Origin: an uncultured Pseudomonadota bacterium
GTDB taxonomy: Bacteria > SAR324 > NAC60-12
Direction of reading: 5' to 3'
NCBI GenBank assembly: GCA_913020725.1
Contig: CAJWCD010000064.1
Coordinates: 1 to 20,390 of the forward strand
DNA length: 20,390 bases
The position numbers were made by a program, and so were the translations under genes. Shown here piece by piece: positions 11,283 to 20,390 of this stretch. The notes under the pieces were generated by a model. That model was not told the origin of the DNA, searched no databases, and saw only the letters and a list, made by a program, of their open reading frames with translations. Position 1 is the first letter of the stretch; every line of letters begins with the position of its first letter.

Positions 11283-11373
11283 ACCATTGTGCTGCCCGTG
11301 TGCAGGATAACGTATTGCCTGATGACCCGAGCTTCAATGTTTGTTAGAAGCTGTTGACCGACATGACTTATTT

Positions 11374-14300
11374 ATGACCAACAAAACCAAACCGTCTTCA
11401 AAGAGAACCCGCAACGCTTTCCGAATGGCGGAGGCGATGTCGCATGACCTCGCCCTGAAATCCCGACGCCCCAGCACGGGAACGGATTCCGGCATTCTCG
11501 GTCTGCTGCCGAACAAGATGATCCGCGAGCAAATCCGGGAACTGCGGCGTTTGGATGTGGATGCCTACATCCAGCGTGTGGTGCTACCTTCTGAGAACCA
11601 GAAACGCCTCAGCACCCAAGAGGTGATCCAAAAACTGGGGGGCAAGCTGATCTCCGAGGATTCCGATGGCCCGTTGTACACGGCAGAACTTGAATTCCTG
11701 ATGAGCGGGCGACTGCGTCGCATTGGGGTGCTGGCGCAGAATCACAAAGTCCAAAACGGCATCTGGTACCCCCATCACCACCGACGGGCGGCAGAGAAAA
11801 TCCGCTTCTTCGCGTCTCACTCCATGCCGCTCGTGACCTTCATGGACACCCCCGGAGCGGCTGCAGATTCTGATGCCAACCTGCAAAACCAGGCACACAG
11901 CATCTCGTTTCTAATCGCCGAGATGGCTAACCTCCAGCTTCCGGTGGTTGGCGTTGTTTTCGGATGCGGCTACAGCGGAGGCGCGATTCCGTTGGCAACA
12001 GCGAACGTGCTGCTCTCCATCCGGGAGGGGGTCTTCAACACCATCCACCCTCGCGGTTTAAGCAACATCGCCCGCAAGTACAACCTCTCGTGGCAGGAAT
12101 CCGCCAAGTACATTGGCGTGTCCTCGTATGAGTTGTGGGATCAGGGCTATTTCGATGGCATTGTGGATTTCAGCCTCTCGGATTCGAAGCGGGTCTTGCC
12201 GCTCAAGACCGCGATCCTCAGTGCGATTGAGCATGTGGAGGAGAACGCACGGGACTTCCTGAAAGAAAACCCCTTCTTTTTTGAGCACTACCGCGACAGC
12301 ATTCAGCGCTACCTCAACCCCTCCGAACTGCTGATCGAGAACAACCGCAAGACCGACCGCACTCCGACCGGCACCCTCAACATTTTCGGGGTGGTCTATC
12401 GTTACACACGCTATCTGGGGTTGCGGCAACGTATCACCAGCCGCTCCGTTCACCAATACTCCCGGCTCAGCCATCGCAAGACGCCCAGTGGGATGCTGCT
12501 GGAACGGCAAGCCCGAGAGCGGGAGGAGAAGTTCACGCGCTGGCTGGAGGCTCCGCTGGAACTGCGCTACCACGATGGGCTCAACAAACGCTTCCAGCAG
12601 TATCAAAACGCACAGGACAACCGCAGCAAGGAGCGCGGACGCTTCGCAGCTTTTTTCATGGGCGACCCTCGCGAGAACTACGACAAGGCGCTGGATGACC
12701 TCGTTTTTGATGCGTTGTTTTATCTCTACAATTTTTGGAAGGACAGCATCCACGAGAACCTCCTGAACCTCAATCAGCACCTCGGCACCCTCGCTGTGTT
12801 GGAAACGCTTCCTGAGCAGCCGGACTTGCTGACCCTCCTGCGCCTTCCGGAAGTCCGGGCACGCTTCGAGGAGAACTTTCCGAACCTCCTGCTCTTCGAC
12901 CTGCTCTACAATCAAGTGATTGACGGCCTGCCTTCGATTGCCGGAGAACTCAAGGGCAGCAACCGTATTTCGGAAGAGTCGGTGGCCAAGCTCTTTGACG
13001 AAGCGCTGGAGCGGGCGCTTGCCCAGCTTGAGCAATCCGAACTTCCCGTGGACCGTGAGCAAACCCGCAAGCGCTTTTTCGACTGGCTCAGCGCCTTCAT
13101 CTCGCAGAAAACCTGTGACGAGGTGATGGGAACGATCAGCGCGTGGAAGCGGGTGGTGTTTCCGCGCATGAGTCCTCCGCTCTTTGGGCTGGTGCGCTAC
13201 TACTTCTCCGGACTGCTGCCCTCGTTGCACACCGCCCAGCAGGGCAGTGGCAAGTTCGACGGCAAGATCACCCCCAAGAACATTGGCATCAAGGATTTCT
13301 GGAACCGACTGGACCAAGCTTACAAGGACCTCCTCATCCAAAACCTGCTGCGCTCCTGCAAGCGCAAAACCATCGCCCCCAACGACATCATTGACCGCTT
13401 CTTCGCGGGCTTCCAGGAGTTTTACGCCGACCGCATCACCGCGAACCCCCTCCAGTTTCCGGGCTTCCGGGAGGCCATCGAAAGAGCTTTGGCCCAAGGC
13501 GTGGTGCCCTGCGGGGTGGTGACCGGGCTGGCGCAATTCACTCCGGACTCGCAGGCGGAAGGCCGTGCTGCCGAAAAAGCAGCGGCGCCCTTCCGGGTGG
13601 GGCTGGTGGTGAGCAACAGCGCATTTCAGGCCGGAGCCTTCGACATGGCGAGTTGCGAGAAAGTTTGTCGCTTGCTCGACGAATGTGCCCGCCTCAAGCT
13701 TCCCGTCATCTTCTTCATCTCCTCGGCAGGAATGCAAACCAAGGAAGGCGCAGGCGCTCTGTTCTCGATGGCGATCATCAACGACCGCATCACGCGCTTT
13801 GTGAAGGAACTCGACCTGCCCGTGGTTTGCTTCGGCTACCGCGATTGCACAGGTGGGGCGCAGGCGAGCTTTGTCACGCATCCGCTGGTGCGGACCTACT
13901 ACCTCTCCGGAGCGCAGATTCCCTTTGCCGGACAACTTGTTGTCGAAAGTCATTTGCCTGCGCATTCCACGCTCGCCAACTACCTCTCCCGGACTCCGGA
14001 GACGATGGATGGACTCGTGATCAATCCCTTTGACGAGGGGCTTGACGAGCATCTCCGGGAGATTGACCCCGACTTGCCGGTTCCGCAAAACACGGTGAGT
14101 GAGGTGATGGGGCGGGTCTTGTCCGGAGAGTATCAGTTGCAGGTCGGCGTGGAGGCCGAGGGGGGCAGCCTCAGTCAGGAGCAGCTCAACACTGATCCGA
14201 TCCGTCGGGTGCTGATCCACGCCCGAGGCTGCACGGCGACCCGTCTGATCCGGGCCTCCCAGTCGGCGGGCATGGAGGTCGTGCTGGTCGCCTCTGATCC

Positions 14301-15945
14301 GGACATGGAAAGCTACCCGGCCTCGCTGATCCGCAAGCAGGACCGCCTCGTCTGCATTGGCGGCAGCACCCCGCAGGACAGCTACCTCAACGCGATGAGC
14401 GTGATCCGCATTGCGGAGCAGGAGGAGGCGGATGCGATTCACCCAGGAATCGGCTTCCTCTCCGAATCGCCTCGCTACGCCCGCATTTGCCGCGAACACG
14501 GTTTCAATTTCATTGGGCCGCGTGCGCACAGCATGGACCTGATGGGCAACAAATCCAATGCGATCGCTACCGCCCGCAGTCTCAAAATTCCGGTAGTTCC
14601 GGGTAGCGAGGGAGCCTTGGTGGACCCCGTCCACGCAGCGGGGGTGGCGGAGGAAATCGGCTTTCCAGTCTTGATCAAGGCGACGCATGGCGGTGGTGGC
14701 AAGGGCATCCACATCGTGGATGCCCCGGAAGAATTCCCGGCCATCTTCTCCCGGATGTCCCAAGAGGCGTTGAGTGCCTTTGGAAACGGCGATCTCTATC
14801 TGGAGAAGTTCATCGGCTCGATGCGTCACTTAGAAGTGCAGGTGATCCGGGATTTGCAGGGCAACTCGAAGCTGCTGCACATCCGGGATTGCTCAGTTCA
14901 GCGCAGCTATCAGAAGCTCATCGAGGAATCCGCATTCGCCCTGCCTCAGGAAATCCGCCACGAAGTTTTCGACCACTCACTCCGACTCATTGATGAGATG
15001 GACTATGTGGGCGCAGGCACGGTTGAGTTCATTTACGATCTCAAGGACCGCTGCGTGTATTTCATGGAAATGAACACACGCTTGCAGGTTGAACATCCGG
15101 TGTCGGAGATGGTCACAGGGGTGGACCTCGTGAAGCAGCAATTCGGCATCGCCTCCGGCGAGAGCATCGCTCAGCTCAAGCCCCGCAACGATGGACACGC
15201 CATCGAAGTCAGGATCAACGCAGAGCGTGTGGAAATCACCGATTCAGGTGAGTTGCGCTTTGTGCCGGCTCCGGGAGAAGTCACCGATTTCGACTTTCCG
15301 GAAGAGTCCCATGTGCGCGTGATCCCTGCTGTGCAACCCAACTCGGTGGTTTCCCCGCACTACGACAGCCTCATCGCGCAGGTCATCGTTTGGGGCAGAT
15401 CCCGCAAAGAAGCCGTCTCCCGACTCAGCGATTACTTGGGCCGAGTGCGCATCCACGGAGTGCCGACCAATCTGGAACTACAACGCATGATCCTTGACGA
15501 TGCCGGCTTCCGACGCGGACGCTTTGACACAGCCTTCCTCAAGGGATTCTTTGCACGAATTGAGGTGGAAGAACTCATCCGCCGGACGCAGGAGGCCACC
15601 GGAAAGGCGGCGGATTCCATGGATCGCAGTGCCATCGAATTGGAAGGCGGCAACGAGTTGAAGGTGCTGTCTCCACAGATGGGCGGGTTCTATCGCTCTA
15701 TTTCCCCGGAAGAGGAGGTGCTGGTGGCGGAAGGCAGTGTGGTGGATGTCAACCAGCCGCTCTGCTTGCTGGAATCTATGAAGGTGTTCTCTGAATTGAA
15801 ACTGCGCTCCTTCCGCAGTGCGGCGGGGGAGGGGCTTTACCCGGAAACCAGCCACTACCGCATCACACGCATCCTCGCTGAAGACAAGCAGACCGTGAGT
15901 GCCGGAGATTTGCTCTTTGTCGTGCAGCCGGTTGAAACCCGTTAG
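11374..15945 (+). CDS. Single-chain biotin-dependent acyl-CoA carboxylase: CT-alpha, large insert, CT-beta, biotin carboxylase, BCCP
   Basis: AccA-like FMDTPGA and GYSGGA. AccD-like GVVTG, CTGGAQASF and IPFAGQLVVE. BC motifs DAIHPGIGFLSE, MGNKSNA, GGGGKG, RDCSVQR, FMEMNTRLQVEHPV and AIEVRINAE. Biotinyl motif ESMK at 15772-15783. ATG 11374 preferred over TTG 11341. Confidence 0.93.
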   Translation: MTNKTKPSSKRTRNAFRMAEAMSHDLALKSRRPSTGTDSGILGLLPNKMIREQIRELRRLDVDAYIQRVVLPSENQKRLSTQEVIQKLGGKLISEDSDGPLYTAELEFLMSGRLRRIGVLAQNHKVQNGIWYPHHHRRAAEKIRFFASHSMPLVTFMDTPGAAADSDANLQNQAHSISFLIAEMANLQLPVVGVVFGCGYSGGAIPLATANVLLSIREGVFNTIHPRGLSNIARKYNLSWQESAKYIGVSSYELWDQGYFDGIVDFSLSDSKRVLPLKTAILSAIEHVEENARDFLKENPFFFEHYRDSIQRYLNPSELLIENNRKTDRTPTGTLNIFGVVYRYTRYLGLRQRITSRSVHQYSRLSHRKTPSGMLLERQAREREEKFTRWLEAPLELRYHDGLNKRFQQYQNAQDNRSKERGRFAAFFMGDPRENYDKALDDLVFDALFYLYNFWKDSIHENLLNLNQHLGTLAVLETLPEQPDLLTLLRLPEVRARFEENFPNLLLFDLLYNQVIDGLPSIAGELKGSNRISEESVAKLFDEALERALAQLEQSELPVDREQTRKRFFDWLSAFISQKTCDEVMGTISAWKRVVFPRMSPPLFGLVRYYFSGLLPSLHTAQQGSGKFDGKITPKNIGIKDFWNRLDQAYKDLLIQNLLRSCKRKTIAPNDIIDRFFAGFQEFYADRITANPLQFPGFREAIERALAQGVVPCGVVTGLAQFTPDSQAEGRAAEKAAAPFRVGLVVSNSAFQAGAFDMASCEKVCRLLDECARLKLPVIFFISSAGMQTKEGAGALFSMAIINDRITRFVKELDLPVVCFGYRDCTGGAQASFVTHPLVRTYYLSGAQIPFAGQLVVESHLPAHSTLANYLSRTPETMDGLVINPFDEGLDEHLREIDPDLPVPQNTVSEVMGRVLSGEYQLQVGVEAEGGSLSQEQLNTDPIRRVLIHARGCTATRLIRASQSAGMEVVLVASDPDMESYPASLIRKQDRLVCIGGSTPQDSYLNAMSVIRIAEQEEADAIHPGIGFLSESPRYARICREHGFNFIGPRAHSMDLMGNKSNAIATARSLKIPVVPGSEGALVDPVHAAGVAEEIGFPVLIKATHGGGGKGIHIVDAPEEFPAIFSRMSQEALSAFGNGDLYLEKFIGSMRHLEVQVIRDLQGNSKLLHIRDCSVQRSYQKLIEESAFALPQEIRHEVFDHSLRLIDEMDYVGAGTVEFIYDLKDRCVYFMEMNTRLQVEHPVSEMVTGVDLVKQQFGIASGESIAQLKPRNDGHAIEVRINAERVEITDSGELRFVPAPGEVTDFDFPEESHVRVIPAVQPNSVVSPHYDSLIAQVIVWGRSRKEAVSRLSDYLGRVRIHGVPTNLELQRMILDDAGFRRGRFDTAFLKGFFARIEVEELIRRTQEATGKAADSMDRSAIELEGGNELKVLSPQMGGFYRSISPEEEVLVAEGSVVDVNQPLCLLESMKVFSELKLRSFRSAAGEGLYPETSHYRITRILAEDKQTVSAGDLLFVVQPVETR

Positions 15946-16348: not shown

Positions 16349-16561
16349 TCAGCGTCCGGGCTTGCAGACGAGTAGTGCCCGCTCGTACTTGCCAAAACGC
16401 TGGGTGCTGAGTACTTCAAAATCGCCGTGACAGCGCTGCACCGCCTTGGCCTGAAACTCGCTGAGATCCCCTTCCTTGTAAAACACCTCATCCACTTTCG
16501 GGGCACACCCGAACAGCAACAACACCGCCAGCAGCACCCCACTCGCATCTCTCCCCGTCAC
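16349..16561 (-). CDS. Small hypothetical lipoprotein (70 aa)
   Basis: GTG at 16561 overlaps the rarA stop (GTGA). Lipobox LFG-C follows a hydrophobic stretch, and two more Cys could form a disulfide. Confidence 0.7.
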   Translation of the reverse strand: MTGRDASGVLLAVLLLFGCAPKVDEVFYKEGDLSEFQAKAVQRCHGDFEVLSTQRFGKYERALLVCKPGR

Positions 16562-18750
16562 TGACGCACAACCACGAGTTGAAGAACCGTCCGGGACCAT
16601 GGGTGCGTTTTATGGGGCACGTGTTGTTTGAAGGCTTGGGCAATCTCCTGAAAGGTGGCTGGGGCCAGCAACGACCGGAGTTTCCCAAAATACCCCGTGT
16701 TGTTGCGAGGCTCAAGCCATTCTTGAATTCGGTGCGCTGCAAGCCGCAGTTCGGTCGTGTAAGATTTTTCGCTGCAAACCACTATGGAATACCCCACTTG
16801 CAGGCGTTCGCCAAAAGCTTTCTTCGTCAGAGTGCCGTCTTTGTTCTGAAGGGGCTGATAGATTTCCTGCTCCGCGTCCAATAATGCCTGTTTTGTTGAT
16901 GCATCCAATAAATTCGCCGCCAGCAGACTAGAAAGCCGAGGAGCCTTGCTGGGTAAAGAGAGGGCGAAGAGCAATCGTCCTGCGGGGGCAAGTAAGTCAG
17001 AAAGTGCGGCCAACTGCCCGGAAATCGGAGGCTCCTGCTCAGTAGGAAACCAACCCAAGATGCGCTCAAAGCGGATATTCGAGGAGGCCAGTTGCTCGGT
17101 GATATTTTCCAGAGTCCCCTCATGCCAAACGCAGGCCGGATGTTCAGATTCGGCATCGGGTCCGGTCCAAAGTGCGCGCTTGCCCCCTGTGGGTAGCCAG
17201 ACGTGGACCCCCTCGTCCGGAGTTTGCCGACGCAGTTCAGGGGTGAGCAATCCGGAGGCGGGTTCTAGCGCAAGTGTGAGGGAATTGCGTTGCAGTTGGG
17301 CGTGCACAAAAAGATCCGTGCGGATTTGCGACAACACCTCCGTGCTGGTGTCGTAGGTTCGTTCTTCCCAATCCGGACCCTGCGATTTGGCCTCGCTTTC
17401 CAGCAGGGCCGCGATCATGGCTTCGCGCCGGCGTAGCACTTCTACTCGCAGGTGCTGTTCGTAGCCTTGGTCCGACGGCTGGTAGAATACCCGCCCTTGC
17501 AAGGCATCCGGGAGGTACTGCTGCGCCACCCAATGATCCCGGTAAGCGTGGGGATAAAGATAGCCTTCGCCATGCCCGAAACTTTCCTTGTCCCGATTGG
17601 CGTCCTTGATAGGATCAGGCACCTCGTCCTTAGATTCGGACTCCACTGTCCGCAGCGCGTCAAAGAACGCAAACGCGCTGTTGCTCTTGTGGGCGGTGCT
17701 GAGGTACAAGCAGGCTTCTGCGAGAAGAAAGCGACCCTCCGGCATCCCCACATAGTTAAAGGCCTGCGCGGCGGACGTGACCACCGAGAGGGCTTGCGGA
17801 TCGGCCAAACCCACGTCTTCCGCTGCAAAGATCGTCATCCTCCGAAACAGAAAACGGGGTTCCTCACCACCGAGGATCATCTTCGCCATCCAGTAGAGTG
17901 CTGCATCCGGATCAGAGCCGCGCATGGCCTTGATGAACGCCGAGGCGGTATCGAAATGCACATCACCATCCTTGTCATACAAGACCGCCCGCCGCTGGAT
18001 GGAGTCCTCAGCGACCTCCAGTGTGACTGGCACCACACCGTTTGCGTCCGGAGGAGTGGTCTGCACCGCGAGTTCCAGCGCGTTGAGGGCCGAGCGGGCA
18101 TCACCGGACGCCACCTGTGCGAGATGCGCGCGGGCTTCCGGAGCAAACGCCACCTGATGTTGTCCAAGCCCGCGTTCGGAATCCGCCAGTGCCTGATCCA
18201 AAAGGCGTGCGATATGCTCAGCCTCCAGCGCATGCAATTGAAAAATCCGGGAGCGGCTCAGCAGAGCCTTGTTGACCTCGAAGTGCGGATTCTCAGTCGT
18301 TGCACCGATCAGCACGAGGGTACCGTTCTCAACATGCGGGAGCAGTGCGTCCTGTTGCGCCTTATTGAAGCGGTGGACTTCGTCAATGAACAACAGGGTG
18401 CGAATCTGACGGGTGCGCCACGCCTCCTGCGCTTGCTCCACGCACTGCCGGATGTCACTGATCCCGGCAAGGACTGCGTTGATCGAAAGAAAGTCGGAGC
18501 GTGTGGTCTGCGCGATGATGTGGGCAAGGGTCGTTTTGCCACTTCCGGGAGGGCCAGAAAAGATGACACTGGAGAGTTGATCCGCCTCGATCGCCCGACG
18601 CAACAGCCGTCCGGGAGCCAAGACATGAGCTTGCCCCACGAATTCCACCAACGTCCGGGGGCGCATGCGCTCAGCCAGCGGGGCCAACTGTTGACGCACC
18701 TTGTCGGCAGCGTGATCCAAGAGTGGAGCGTTTGGGTTGCGTTTGGGCAT
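16558..18750 (-). CDS. rarA: Replication-associated recombination protein A (RarA/MgsA) with a long C-terminal extension
   Basis: APLAERMRP, Walker A GPPGSGKT, FIDEVHRFNKAQQDALLP, IGATTENP, SAFIKAMRGSDPDAALYW and YLYPH...QQYLP. About 280 extra residues follow the usual end. Confidence 0.95.
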   Translation of the reverse strand: MPKRNPNAPLLDHAADKVRQQLAPLAERMRPRTLVEFVGQAHVLAPGRLLRRAIEADQLSSVIFSGPPGSGKTTLAHIIAQTTRSDFLSINAVLAGISDIRQCVEQAQEAWRTRQIRTLLFIDEVHRFNKAQQDALLPHVENGTLVLIGATTENPHFEVNKALLSRSRIFQLHALEAEHIARLLDQALADSERGLGQHQVAFAPEARAHLAQVASGDARSALNALELAVQTTPPDANGVVPVTLEVAEDSIQRRAVLYDKDGDVHFDTASAFIKAMRGSDPDAALYWMAKMILGGEEPRFLFRRMTIFAAEDVGLADPQALSVVTSAAQAFNYVGMPEGRFLLAEACLYLSTAHKSNSAFAFFDALRTVESESKDEVPDPIKDANRDKESFGHGEGYLYPHAYRDHWVAQQYLPDALQGRVFYQPSDQGYEQHLRVEVLRRREAMIAALLESEAKSQGPDWEERTYDTSTEVLSQIRTDLFVHAQLQRNSLTLALEPASGLLTPELRRQTPDEGVHVWLPTGGKRALWTGPDAESEHPACVWHEGTLENITEQLASSNIRFERILGWFPTEQEPPISGQLAALSDLLAPAGRLLFALSLPSKAPRLSSLLAANLLDASTKQALLDAEQEIYQPLQNKDGTLTKKAFGERLQVGYSIVVCSEKSYTTELRLAAHRIQEWLEPRNNTGYFGKLRSLLAPATFQEIAQAFKQHVPHKTHPWSRTVLQLVVVRQ

Positions 18751-18867: not shown

Positions 18868-18943
18868 GCGGGAGTAGCTCAGTTGGTAGAGCATCAGCCT
18901 TCCAAGCTGAGGGTCGCCGGTTCGAACCCGGTCTCCCGCTCCA
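18868..18943 (+). tRNA. tRNA-Gly (TCC)
   Basis: 76-nt cloverleaf. Acceptor stem GCGGGAG/CTCCCGC, anticodon arm TCAGC-CTTCCAA-GCTGA, TTCGAA T-loop and encoded CCA. Confidence 0.97.
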
Positions 18944-18974: not shown

Positions 18975-19051
<77 letters not shown>

Positions 19052-19117
19052 AATAAATCCAATAAAATCATTAGATTAAAGAGATATTTTTTAACCTCTT
19101 GATTTGGTATAAATCTG

Positions 19118-19164
19118 TACCCCACACTATACCCCACATACTTTAACTCTTTTGGATATACCCC
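19118..19164 (+). repeat. Tandem direct repeats resembling tyrosine-integrase arm-type binding sites
   Basis: TACCCCACA at 19118-19126 and 19130-19138 (12-bp period), with a partial copy TATACCCC at 19157-19164. Confidence 0.65.
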
Positions 19165-19388
19165 TCGCATTTGAGTAAAAGATACCTTGAGCACACTATC
19201 GCCAAGTCAGGTCAGAGCAAGCGCAGTCAAGCCAGAATGATCCTCTCATTGAGTTGATACCCTCTATCACCTGAAACCTTCTGGTGTTGAAATCATTCCT
19301 CAAGCACCTCAGTTCGGTCTGATGGCACCGATCGTGGGATGGAAGCGATCCCTACAGTTTCATCCTTCCAACAGTCCTTCCGCAATAG

Positions 19389-19394
19389 TATAAT
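19389..19394 (+). promoter_or_regulatory. Possible -10 box upstream of the terS-like gene
   Basis: Perfect TATAAT, but only a weak -35 (TTCCAA at 19366-19371, 17-bp spacer). Confidence 0.3.
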
Positions 19395-19541
19395 TAAAGC
19401 TCCAGCTTGGCTCCATGCCTGACTGCCCAAAAGAAGGGCAGGGGGGAACAAAACAGCCCCCAATGCTACATAGTACATTCCCTCCCTCTATTCGGGGGGA
19501 GGATTTTGGTGTTCAGCCCATTAACATTTTTGAGACTTGAA

Positions 19542-20015
19542 ATGCGGCGCTTTGGAGAACTCTCAGAACAGCGGCAGGTGTTTGTTCAGGAATACTGCAG
19601 GCTGGGAGATCATGTGGAGGCAGCCCGTCGAGCGGGGTATTCGGAAAAGACCCTCAACAATCAGGCATGCAAGCTCAAGCGCGAGCTCTCAGGAGAAATT
19701 GAAAGCGAGTTAAGGTTTAATTTCGTCAGCCATGCCCCGAACGCCTTGAGAATACTGACAGAGCTGGCAGAACACTCCAATTCGGACAGTGTAAGGCTGC
19801 AGGCCGCAAGAGATCTTCTGGACCGTGCCGGATACAAGGCAGTTGAACGAAGAGAGGAGATCACCCAGCGGCCGTCCACTCAAGAAATTGAATCCGAGAT
19901 TGTCAGGCTGGTCGGCAGGGAAGGAGCAGATCTGCTGCTTCAGAAGAAGTCCCTTGCAGACTTGATGCAAGAGAATAGAAAAGATTCTGGGGTGGTCTCT
20001 GAGTTGGTGAACTGA
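19542..20015 (+). CDS. Phage terminase small subunit-like protein (157 aa)
   Basis: LSEQRQVFVQEY...EAARRAGYSEKT matches the N-terminal HTH pattern of the TerS (Terminase_2-type) family. The helical segment SDSVRLQAARDLLDRAGY is typical of related phage proteins. ATG 19542 preferred over TTG 19407. Confidence 0.78.
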   Translation: MRRFGELSEQRQVFVQEYCRLGDHVEAARRAGYSEKTLNNQACKLKRELSGEIESELRFNFVSHAPNALRILTELAEHSNSDSVRLQAARDLLDRAGYKAVERREEITQRPSTQEIESEIVRLVGREGADLLLQKKSLADLMQENRKDSGVVSELVN

Positions 20016-20058
20016 ACCTCTAGGACGGACCAAAACTTCTGAAACACTTCTTGATCTG

Positions 20059-20170
20059 TGTAACTGGGATTAACCAGAACCACGGTCAATGCCCCTCTCC
20101 ACATACCCTCAAGAGAAGACTGGCTATGCCTTCTTGGGGGCAAACCACTTCGGAGAGAATTCAGCTCCGC
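20059..20170 (+). ncRNA. Speculative tracrRNA-like RNA (imperfect anti-repeat plus hairpins)
   Basis: 20059-20086 is partly complementary to the putative repeat and is followed by stem-loops at 20106-20140 and 20151-20169. Confidence 0.25.
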
Positions 20171-20313
20171 CAGATAATATCTGCCAGCATGTGATCCTCC
20201 CTGAGAATCTAGGGAAAATTAATAAAGGTTTGCAATGAACCGGGTGGGGTGGTAAAAAGCCCTTGGTTCGTTCAGTACTTGAATGAGCTAATGCGTTACA
20301 AACTGGGTTTTCC

Positions 20314-20390
20314 GCTGTGATTTACAGTCAATCCTCTAGGTGTTACAATTGTCATTCGACTGCACCAAGTTTGGGGCAGGCTGTGATTTA
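20314..20390 (+). CRISPR. Start of a putative type II-C-like CRISPR array: one repeat, one spacer and a partial second repeat
   Basis: GCTGTGATTTA occurs at 20314 and at 20380, a 66-bp period, and the second copy is cut by the window end. This parses as the 36-nt GCTGTGATTTACAGTCAATCCTCTAGGTGTTACAAT (20314-20349) plus a 30-nt spacer (20350-20379). The unit ends in TGTTACAAT, like the TGCTACAAT end of Neisseria II-C repeats. Only 11 nt are seen twice, so the 3' boundary is inferred. Confidence 0.6.

Follow-up and report, generated by a model that had tools for sequence, protein, structure and literature searches.

The tRNA-side end of what looks like a PICI-like, tycheposon-type SAR324 element or relic, with a type II-C CRISPR array in its cargo slot

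The stretch of DNA analyzed here (the window) is an entire SAR324 contig of 20,390 nt, and its right part looks like the tRNA-side border of a PICI-like, tycheposon-type element, or of the relic of one, with a type II-C CRISPR array in the cargo slot. For this array, a role as exchangeable cargo of an element that parasitizes phages seems more likely than a new coupled system. More specifically, we regard it as an even call that the window holds the attL end of such an element in SAR324 and that the II-C cassette is mobile-satellite cargo carried behind terS. The window ends 11 bases into the second CRISPR repeat, and since the contig stops inside the array, the DNA to the right is missing. 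A second att, an integrase, and cas9 are all absent from the 20,390-nt contig, and the assembly to which it belongs (3.45 Mb, 204 contigs, 93% complete) yielded no second copy of the arm, no attR of tRNA-Met, no cas9 or cas1, and no matching replication gene; no single sequence joins terS to cas9, an integrase, or attR. An earlier note, made from the letters alone, had read the region as one end, at the tRNA, of an integrative element of the satellite kind that combines a lone terS with a II-C array, and this reading is borne out by the plan of a complete element in G004, by the lack of TerL, and by the linkage of the repeat to a Cas9.

The element begins at a pair of tRNA genes on the forward strand, both called by ARAGORN and by Rfam, which found nothing further in the window: a tRNA-Gly(TCC) at 18868–18943, part of the host core, and an initiator tRNA-Met(CAT) at 18975–19051, whose 3' half serves as the site of integration (attL core). 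In the tRNA-Met, C1 and A72 are mismatched and the anticodon stem contains three G-C pairs, features which we take to be the marks of an initiator. The Gly-Met pair is kept across the family, and the content downstream of it varies genome by genome. Comparison within the family pointed to a tandem repeat with a 12-nt period at 19118–19138 (+ strand) as a putative arm-type integrase site. Indeed, an arm-type pair of at least 8 nt is present 30–130 nt past tRNA-Met at 13 of 23 loci of the family, compared with 24 of 2000 stretches of 100 nt drawn at random from the window's own genome; these loci are kin and hence non-independent, yet their repeat units differ in sequence. The same kind of arm motif occurs at both ends of the complete G004 element described below, and the att-like arm that had been placed at tRNA-fMet is thereby confirmed. 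Furthermore, duplicated 3' fragments of tRNA-Met are frequent (12 matches in G031 and 5 in G037), and two of them, one in each of these genomes, directly precede tyrosine integrase genes. In G037, the fragment is followed by the integrase, 34% identical to that of G004, and then by a VapE-type gene. The tRNA-Met site is an integration hotspot, with integration at the 3' end of the tRNA beside an att arm, and the window holds its left end.

Three further observations were made around these sites. An AT-rich motif of 23–29 nt, like the one right after tRNA-Met, recurs in the window's own genome (C116:11422–11444, C77:2272–2294, and C6:1943–1971), where the C6 copy sits after a tRNA-Ser and adjoins an integrase gene. 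Three partly palindromic 186-nt repeats lie 5' of the tRNA-Gly/tRNA-Met pair in another genome (L006:782–1311; G008:C32). Finally, an Sf6-type TerS-like ORF is located 700 nt from a tRNA-Met att fragment (L096:758–1051; G031:C573) and may, from weak matches, be a further TerS family at the tRNA-Met hotspot.

The plan of a complete element, of about 8.6 kb, is given by G004 (C78; L306:4387–13094), in the order tRNA-Gly, arm repeat, TerS-like ORF 185 nt past the tRNA, cargo made of small genes including cytochrome c, family-A polymerase, integrase, arm repeat, and a 27-nt attR. The TerS call in G004 is weak when taken alone (PHROG 641, E 3e-4; 29% identity to the window protein) and reaches E 2e-18 with a profile that includes distant rows. 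In six hand-picked cases, namely the window, G043, G004, G009, G001, and G016, a TerS-like gene lies on the same strand 174–491 nt past a tRNA, and in G043, which belongs to the same genus as the window, a distant TerS lineage occupies the same tRNA-Met. Alternative layouts exist, with an integrase adjoining tRNA-Met in G004 and with terS pointing back to the att in G033 and G037. Apart from these, a tmRNA-linked element in G016 (C4; L311:4556–14585) contains integrase and primase remnants, a TerS-like gene at its far end, and a 160-nt unit repeated in tandem about six times.

The ORF at 19542–20015 (+ strand, ATG to TGA, 157 aa) is predicted to be a true small terminase subunit. It matches solved structures (PDB 6W7T, E 1.1e-8; 7JOQ, E 2.2e-7) as well as PHROG 51 (E 6e-11) and PHROG 2538, and its match to Pfam PF03592 (E 1.9e-5, 25.7 bits) falls marginally below the 26.1 cut-off; the terS-like gene proposed beforehand holds on these grounds. 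Among the best 80 of 526 confirmed loci of viral TerS relatives, 63 have TerL within 3 kb downstream, as Pfam confirmed in three of the five viral neighbors scanned, and the closest viral loci share 35–43% identity with the window TerS. No match to PF03237 (TerL) was found in the window's own genome, and 22 SAR324 terS loci gave no TerL match apart from a single one of 42 aa with an E of 0.006, leaving terS without TerL in both sets.

A further property of this gene is its mosaic structure. P0004 and P0006 are identical to the window TerS over residues 2–92 (91/91) and share only 25 and 22 of the 59 positions beyond, P0002 is identical over residues 93–157 (65/65) with 65/91 before them, and P0007, P0008, and P0012 have the other form in both halves. 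With two alleles of the N-terminal half and two of the C-terminal half, each of the four possible combinations is present, a pattern in these proteins indicating that the terS alleles recombine mid-gene. The N-terminal part of TerS binds DNA and the C-terminal part binds TerL, according to the available text of a review (PMC7617512); from these domain roles we infer that a crossover in mid-terS would swap the TerL-facing half together with the downstream cargo. In the TerS tree, the window groups with the copies of genus g2, with no starred branch there, and the long branches make the count of independent captures unsure.

As for the CRISPR array, the window contains, on the forward strand, one 36-nt type II-C repeat (20314–20349), a 30-nt spacer (20350–20379), and the first 11 nt of the next repeat (20380–20390), which runs to the contig end. 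An automated repeat search missed the array because the second copy has just 11 nt. The identical repeat is present on another contig, L021, with a different 30-nt spacer, and in a contig of sequencing run X1, two repeat copies enclose a third insert of equal size. The array is real, with 36-nt repeats and three different 30-nt spacers, and the 36+30 unit first noticed in the window alone is upheld. A predicted sigma-70 promoter is embedded in the repeat, with a –35 box at 20321, a spacing of 17 nt, and a TG-extended –10 box ending at 20349 (10/12 with the TG). It is the only promoter-like site in 19040–20390, and since 1.1 such sites are expected by chance in that region, the evidence for it is its place in the repeat. 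The repeat has 0 matches in IMG/VR and 0 in GTDB genome contigs.

The nature of the effector comes from L021, where the order is array, short leader, a 74-aa cas1N-cas2C remnant, and cas9. There, the identical repeat is found 265 nt after cas9, and both cas9 and the remnant are encoded on the other strand when the repeat is read as in the window. The L021 Cas9 scores 552 bits with TIGR01865 (cut-off 100), its alignment retains the RuvC and HNH motifs, in which the aligned positions are presumably the catalytic ones, and the 90% cluster of its best relative contains NCBI proteins labelled SAR324. The remnant (L021:2886–3110) is 89% identical to full-length Cas1 over its first 37 residues and ends in a weak Cas2 match (E 0.003). 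This in-frame fusion, probably a deletion scar, forms a four-member cluster, and 302-aa Cas1 relatives exist in other alleles, from which it follows that the adaptation genes were lost in some alleles only. A cas9 accompanied by cas1/cas2 only, with neither csn2 nor cas4, is found on L021 and not in the window. Alignment scans for Cas9 loci returned only distant relatives (27–40%); arrays are present at 65 of the 98 loci of related Cas9s, and at those with the most similar repeats the array faces cas9 in the same way. The part of the array contained in the window is its trailer end; cas9 and the tracrRNA would be located past the end of the contig. We infer the link from terS to cas9 from one identical repeat on another contig. 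The earlier note had left the effector as the element's own or a host Cas9-like protein. The first half stands in that the repeat belongs to a Cas9 system on L021, and, as the identical repeat has its own cas9 there, no host effector has to be borrowed for the array; borrowing from the host found no support.

Another Cas9 of this group was encountered in G031 (C359; L316:298–1152), where a broken Cas9 start with one internal stop continues in frame into a C-terminal integrase remnant. This fragment is 80% identical to P0066 and 52–55% identical to the L021 Cas9, of which it represents a sister clade, and it adjoins a tRNA-Ala(GGC) with a duplicated 3' att fragment. A tracrRNA-like stretch lies upstream of it (1/200 shuffles as good against the tracr region of L199). 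This Cas9 clade rode a tRNA-integrating element at least one more time.

In the non-coding stretches around terS, a structured leader and a candidate anti-repeat had been proposed from the letters. A terminator-like hairpin is located at 19478–19502 (+ strand), 40 nt 5' of terS, three such sites being found against 1.4 expected. Of nine stretches folded, 19400–19544 gave a z of –2.13 (6/200 shuffles), which lends the structured leader weak support, while 19200–19349 and 19300–19449 were at chance level, and the regions upstream of the genus-g2 terS copies fail to align with the window leader. The best of the nine is the hairpin-rich stretch at 20170–20313 (+ strand; z –2.88, 1/200 shuffles), at the trailer end of the array, where five small hairpins stand in a run immediately 5' of the repeats; its complementarity to the repeat is no better than chance, and it is not an anti-repeat. 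More generally, the best wobble-tolerant match to the repeat in 19052–20313 scores 24.5, a value reached by 253 of 300 shuffles (mean 26.5 ± 2.3), whereas at related II-C loci an anti-repeat scoring 42.5–60.5 is present within 140 nt upstream of cas9 in 21 of 22 cases, these loci having been hand-picked, mostly by repeat likeness. The anti-repeat proposed in the window is not supported on this basis. Other searches for it ended likewise, with 453/500 shuffles as good by plain alignment, chance level in a duplex scan, and 119/200 and 58/200 shuffles as good in comparison with the tracrRNA-like stretches of relatives. Candidates at 20056–20092 and in the L021 leader were dropped as well.

Public sequencing runs give a view of the population. 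At least 20 runs from 15 studies hold 60–80% of the sampled words, one of them being possibly the source, and four (X1, X2, X6, and X7) were compared with the window, with coordinates on run contigs taken in their own orientation, as judged by unitigs that start 30 nt ahead of variants. Three of these four runs have cover over the repeat sequence; that of X7 ends near 19860, and positions 19860–20039 are missing from X2. The main contigs of X1 and X6 match the window up to 20320, that is, 7 nt into the repeat, and then diverge over tails of 47 and 102 letters, respectively. This departure fits a degenerate terminal repeat or other cargo. One X2 contig departs at 20295 and continues with 755 different bases, and it is an allele without the array at that spot. 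From the chromosome to terS, depth drops from 45 to 21 to 10 in X1 and from 78 to 19 to 11 in X6, a drop to which we gave no weight, contig depth being no share of cells.

Taken as cargo of a mobile satellite, the array would continue rightward into a leader, cas2-cas1 (whole or deleted), cas9, and the tracrRNA, beyond which replication and integrase genes and then attR would follow. The promoter in each repeat would yield a short crRNA, as in Neisseria II-C systems, and this crRNA, with a tracrRNA from upstream of cas9, would load Cas9, leading to the cutting of invading DNA. When a phage whose terminase is related infects the cell, the element would excise and replicate, and its TerS would steer the phage TerL onto the element's DNA. 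CRISPR would here be ordinary defence cargo for which no contact with TerS is required, and cargo would be exchanged through recombination in the conserved middle of terS, the TerL-facing half swapping too. The strongest form of this proposal, a SAR324 satellite with a complete self-priming Cas9 inside its att ends, which spreads in helper particles and changes helper choice and payload together by crossover in terS, is put forward as a tentative and rather unlikely extension.

Alternatively, the window may show an immobile relic, in which the terS element lost its other end and the II-C cassette, brought in by recombination or by a separate insertion, is chromosomal and defends the cell without being packaged. 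We consider this quite possible, although short of an even chance. Decay at this tRNA is documented in the long-read genome G016, where 12 window-type terS pieces, most of them partial and with unrelated cargo, are piled within 80 kb amid metabolic genes. Eleven of the 12 lie 3–33 kb below the same tRNA-Met in the orientation of the tRNA, and no integrase was seen by eye in the ORF list around them, which makes terS often a relic at such sites. This pile is the product of serial integration and decay, as in the tRNA-seeded island model that, in the available text of Hackl et al. (bioRxiv 10.1101/2020.12.28.424599), predicts such remnants. Similarly, terS follows a tRNA in G009, G001, and G016:C1 with no integrase among the nearby ORFs listed, and the Cas9 of G031 is likewise a broken relic. 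Against these cases stands the state of the gene in the window, which is whole and whose 90% cluster has 44 members. Furthermore, among the listed variants inside the ORF in the four runs, 14 of 16 are synonymous against 23% expected, a bias whose p-value of 1e-7 is overstated by linkage between the sites and whose direction is clear. The terS gene is intact and under purifying selection, at least in the active copies feeding the pool. The G016 island below tRNA-Met (L040–L042; C4:285000–318000), with its 11 terS pieces in one orientation, also has several repeated non-coding segments of 100–300 nt scattered among metabolic genes.

The earlier note had gone further than cargo and coupled the two parts in one module, in which TerS and Cas9 would act together and satellite crRNAs would be aimed at helper or competitor phages with a related terminase. 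We hold such a dedicated system to be improbable. It is true that terS and the array are less than 300 nt apart, that phages with a related terS-terL pair are common, as the viral loci mentioned before indicate (63 of the best 80), and that some alleles have deletions of the adaptation genes, a loss shared by many CRISPR systems on mobile elements according to the available text of a review (PMC11656645). Nonetheless, neither the window spacer nor that of L021 has a full-length match in IMG/VR, in the window's own genome, or in 189 loci, which include the 80 terS-bearing phage loci. The 3' 20 nt of the window spacer have 0 matches in IMG/VR; those of the L021 spacer have one (L189), where the remaining 10 bases all differ, and this match was attributed to chance. 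Moreover, the repeat occurs in 1 of 88 genomes of the phylum, the window's own, against terS-like matches in 15 of 45 family genomes, the X2 allele lacks the array at its spot, and the terS family adjoins many other cargos. TerS does not need CRISPR.

Very improbable, finally, is a viral mini-array or orphan array borrowing a host Cas9, or an assembly misjoin: one spacer on the contig, the lack of a cas gene in the assembly, the departure of the X1 and X6 main contigs after 7 nt of the repeat, and the fact that none of the 32 pieces listed from the compared runs bridges the flank and the whole repeat would speak for it, but the identical repeat stands beside its own cas9 with a leader on L021, neither the own assembly nor 87 other genomes yielded a host array with the same repeat, the 7 shared bases, identically placed in X1 and X6, are compatible with a degenerate terminal repeat, the repeat is covered in three of four runs, and the Cas9 query found no Cas9 in 43 of 44 other family genomes, in which no general host effector is thus seen.

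Returning to the cargo reading, we compared the window with known systems as described in the accessible parts of the cited texts. PICI-like tycheposons (Hackl et al., bioRxiv 10.1101/2020.12.28.424599) are marine and integrate at tRNA 3' ends as does the element of the window. They have a tyrosine integrase, a replication gene, and terS as the sole packaging gene; their serial integration leaves relics and builds islands, and elements akin to them are reported from Deltaproteobacteria. In Prochlorococcus tycheposons bearing terS or capsid genes, extra cargo was never observed, whereas the window has cargo behind terS, which in this allele is a II-C array. The available text of that preprint contains 0 occurrences of CRISPR or SAR324. 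In PICIs (de Sousa et al. 2023, PMC10085698), TerS redirects helper packaging and accessory genes often come after terS; PICIs are, however, defined by several core genes, of which the window contig carries only terS. In VEIMEs (Eppley et al. 2022, PMC9618062), TerS is similar to that of co-occurring phages; the window TerS likewise has 35–43% identity to its closest viral loci, and the reported cargo of PICIs and VEIMEs (PMC10085698, PMC9618062) comprises restriction and abortive infection and not a Cas9 system. For the window element, packaging in virions is a prediction: IMG/VR yielded no close relative of the TerS, of the L021 Cas9, or of the repeat, and a single-sequence scan of it with the window TerS returned none.

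On the CRISPR side, the II-C systems of Neisseria meningitidis and Campylobacter jejuni (PMC5965381) have a cas9-cas1-cas2 order and a promoter in each repeat, and share with the window and L021 the 36-nt repeat, the 30-nt spacers, and an array opposite to cas9. The predicted mechanism is the same, with the difference that some SAR324-type alleles lost most of cas1 and cas2. Type II systems at tRNA islands are known from Vibrionaceae (McDonald et al. 2019, PMC6360697), with an integrase island at tRNA-Met; the 30-kb island of V. natriegens carries a II-B system, and neither terS nor a satellite plan is described in the available text. A 2024 review of CRISPR in mobile elements (PMC11656645) mentions neither "satellite" nor "PICI" in its accessible part, and the Cas9-loaded PICIs encountered among titles (PMC10530653, PMC13013576) are engineered. 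Titles and abstract openings, with little of the subscription literature, yielded no natural terS satellite with Cas9 and no account of the SAR324 locus; SAR324 elements or CRISPR cargo could be listed in the supplements to the papers by Hackl et al. and Eppley et al. Each part alone is already known.

If the link from terS to cas9 is real, an abundant open-ocean lineage, in which this CRISPR is rare (1 of 88 genomes), gains adaptive immunity as an optional virion-borne cassette, whose spacers would identify phages that infect an uncultured host. SAR324 elements with terS plus cargo contradict the split, published in the available text of Hackl et al., between tycheposons that carry cargo and cargo-free satellite ones. 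With its four allele combinations, terS offers a natural experiment on the half that determines helper specificity. Elsewhere in the window, two genes deserve mention: positions 11341–15945 encode a 1534-aa single-chain carboxylase with ACCA, carboxyl transferase, biotin carboxylase, and biotin carrier domains, and positions 16558–18750 encode a RarA/MgsA protein with about 290 additional C-terminal residues.
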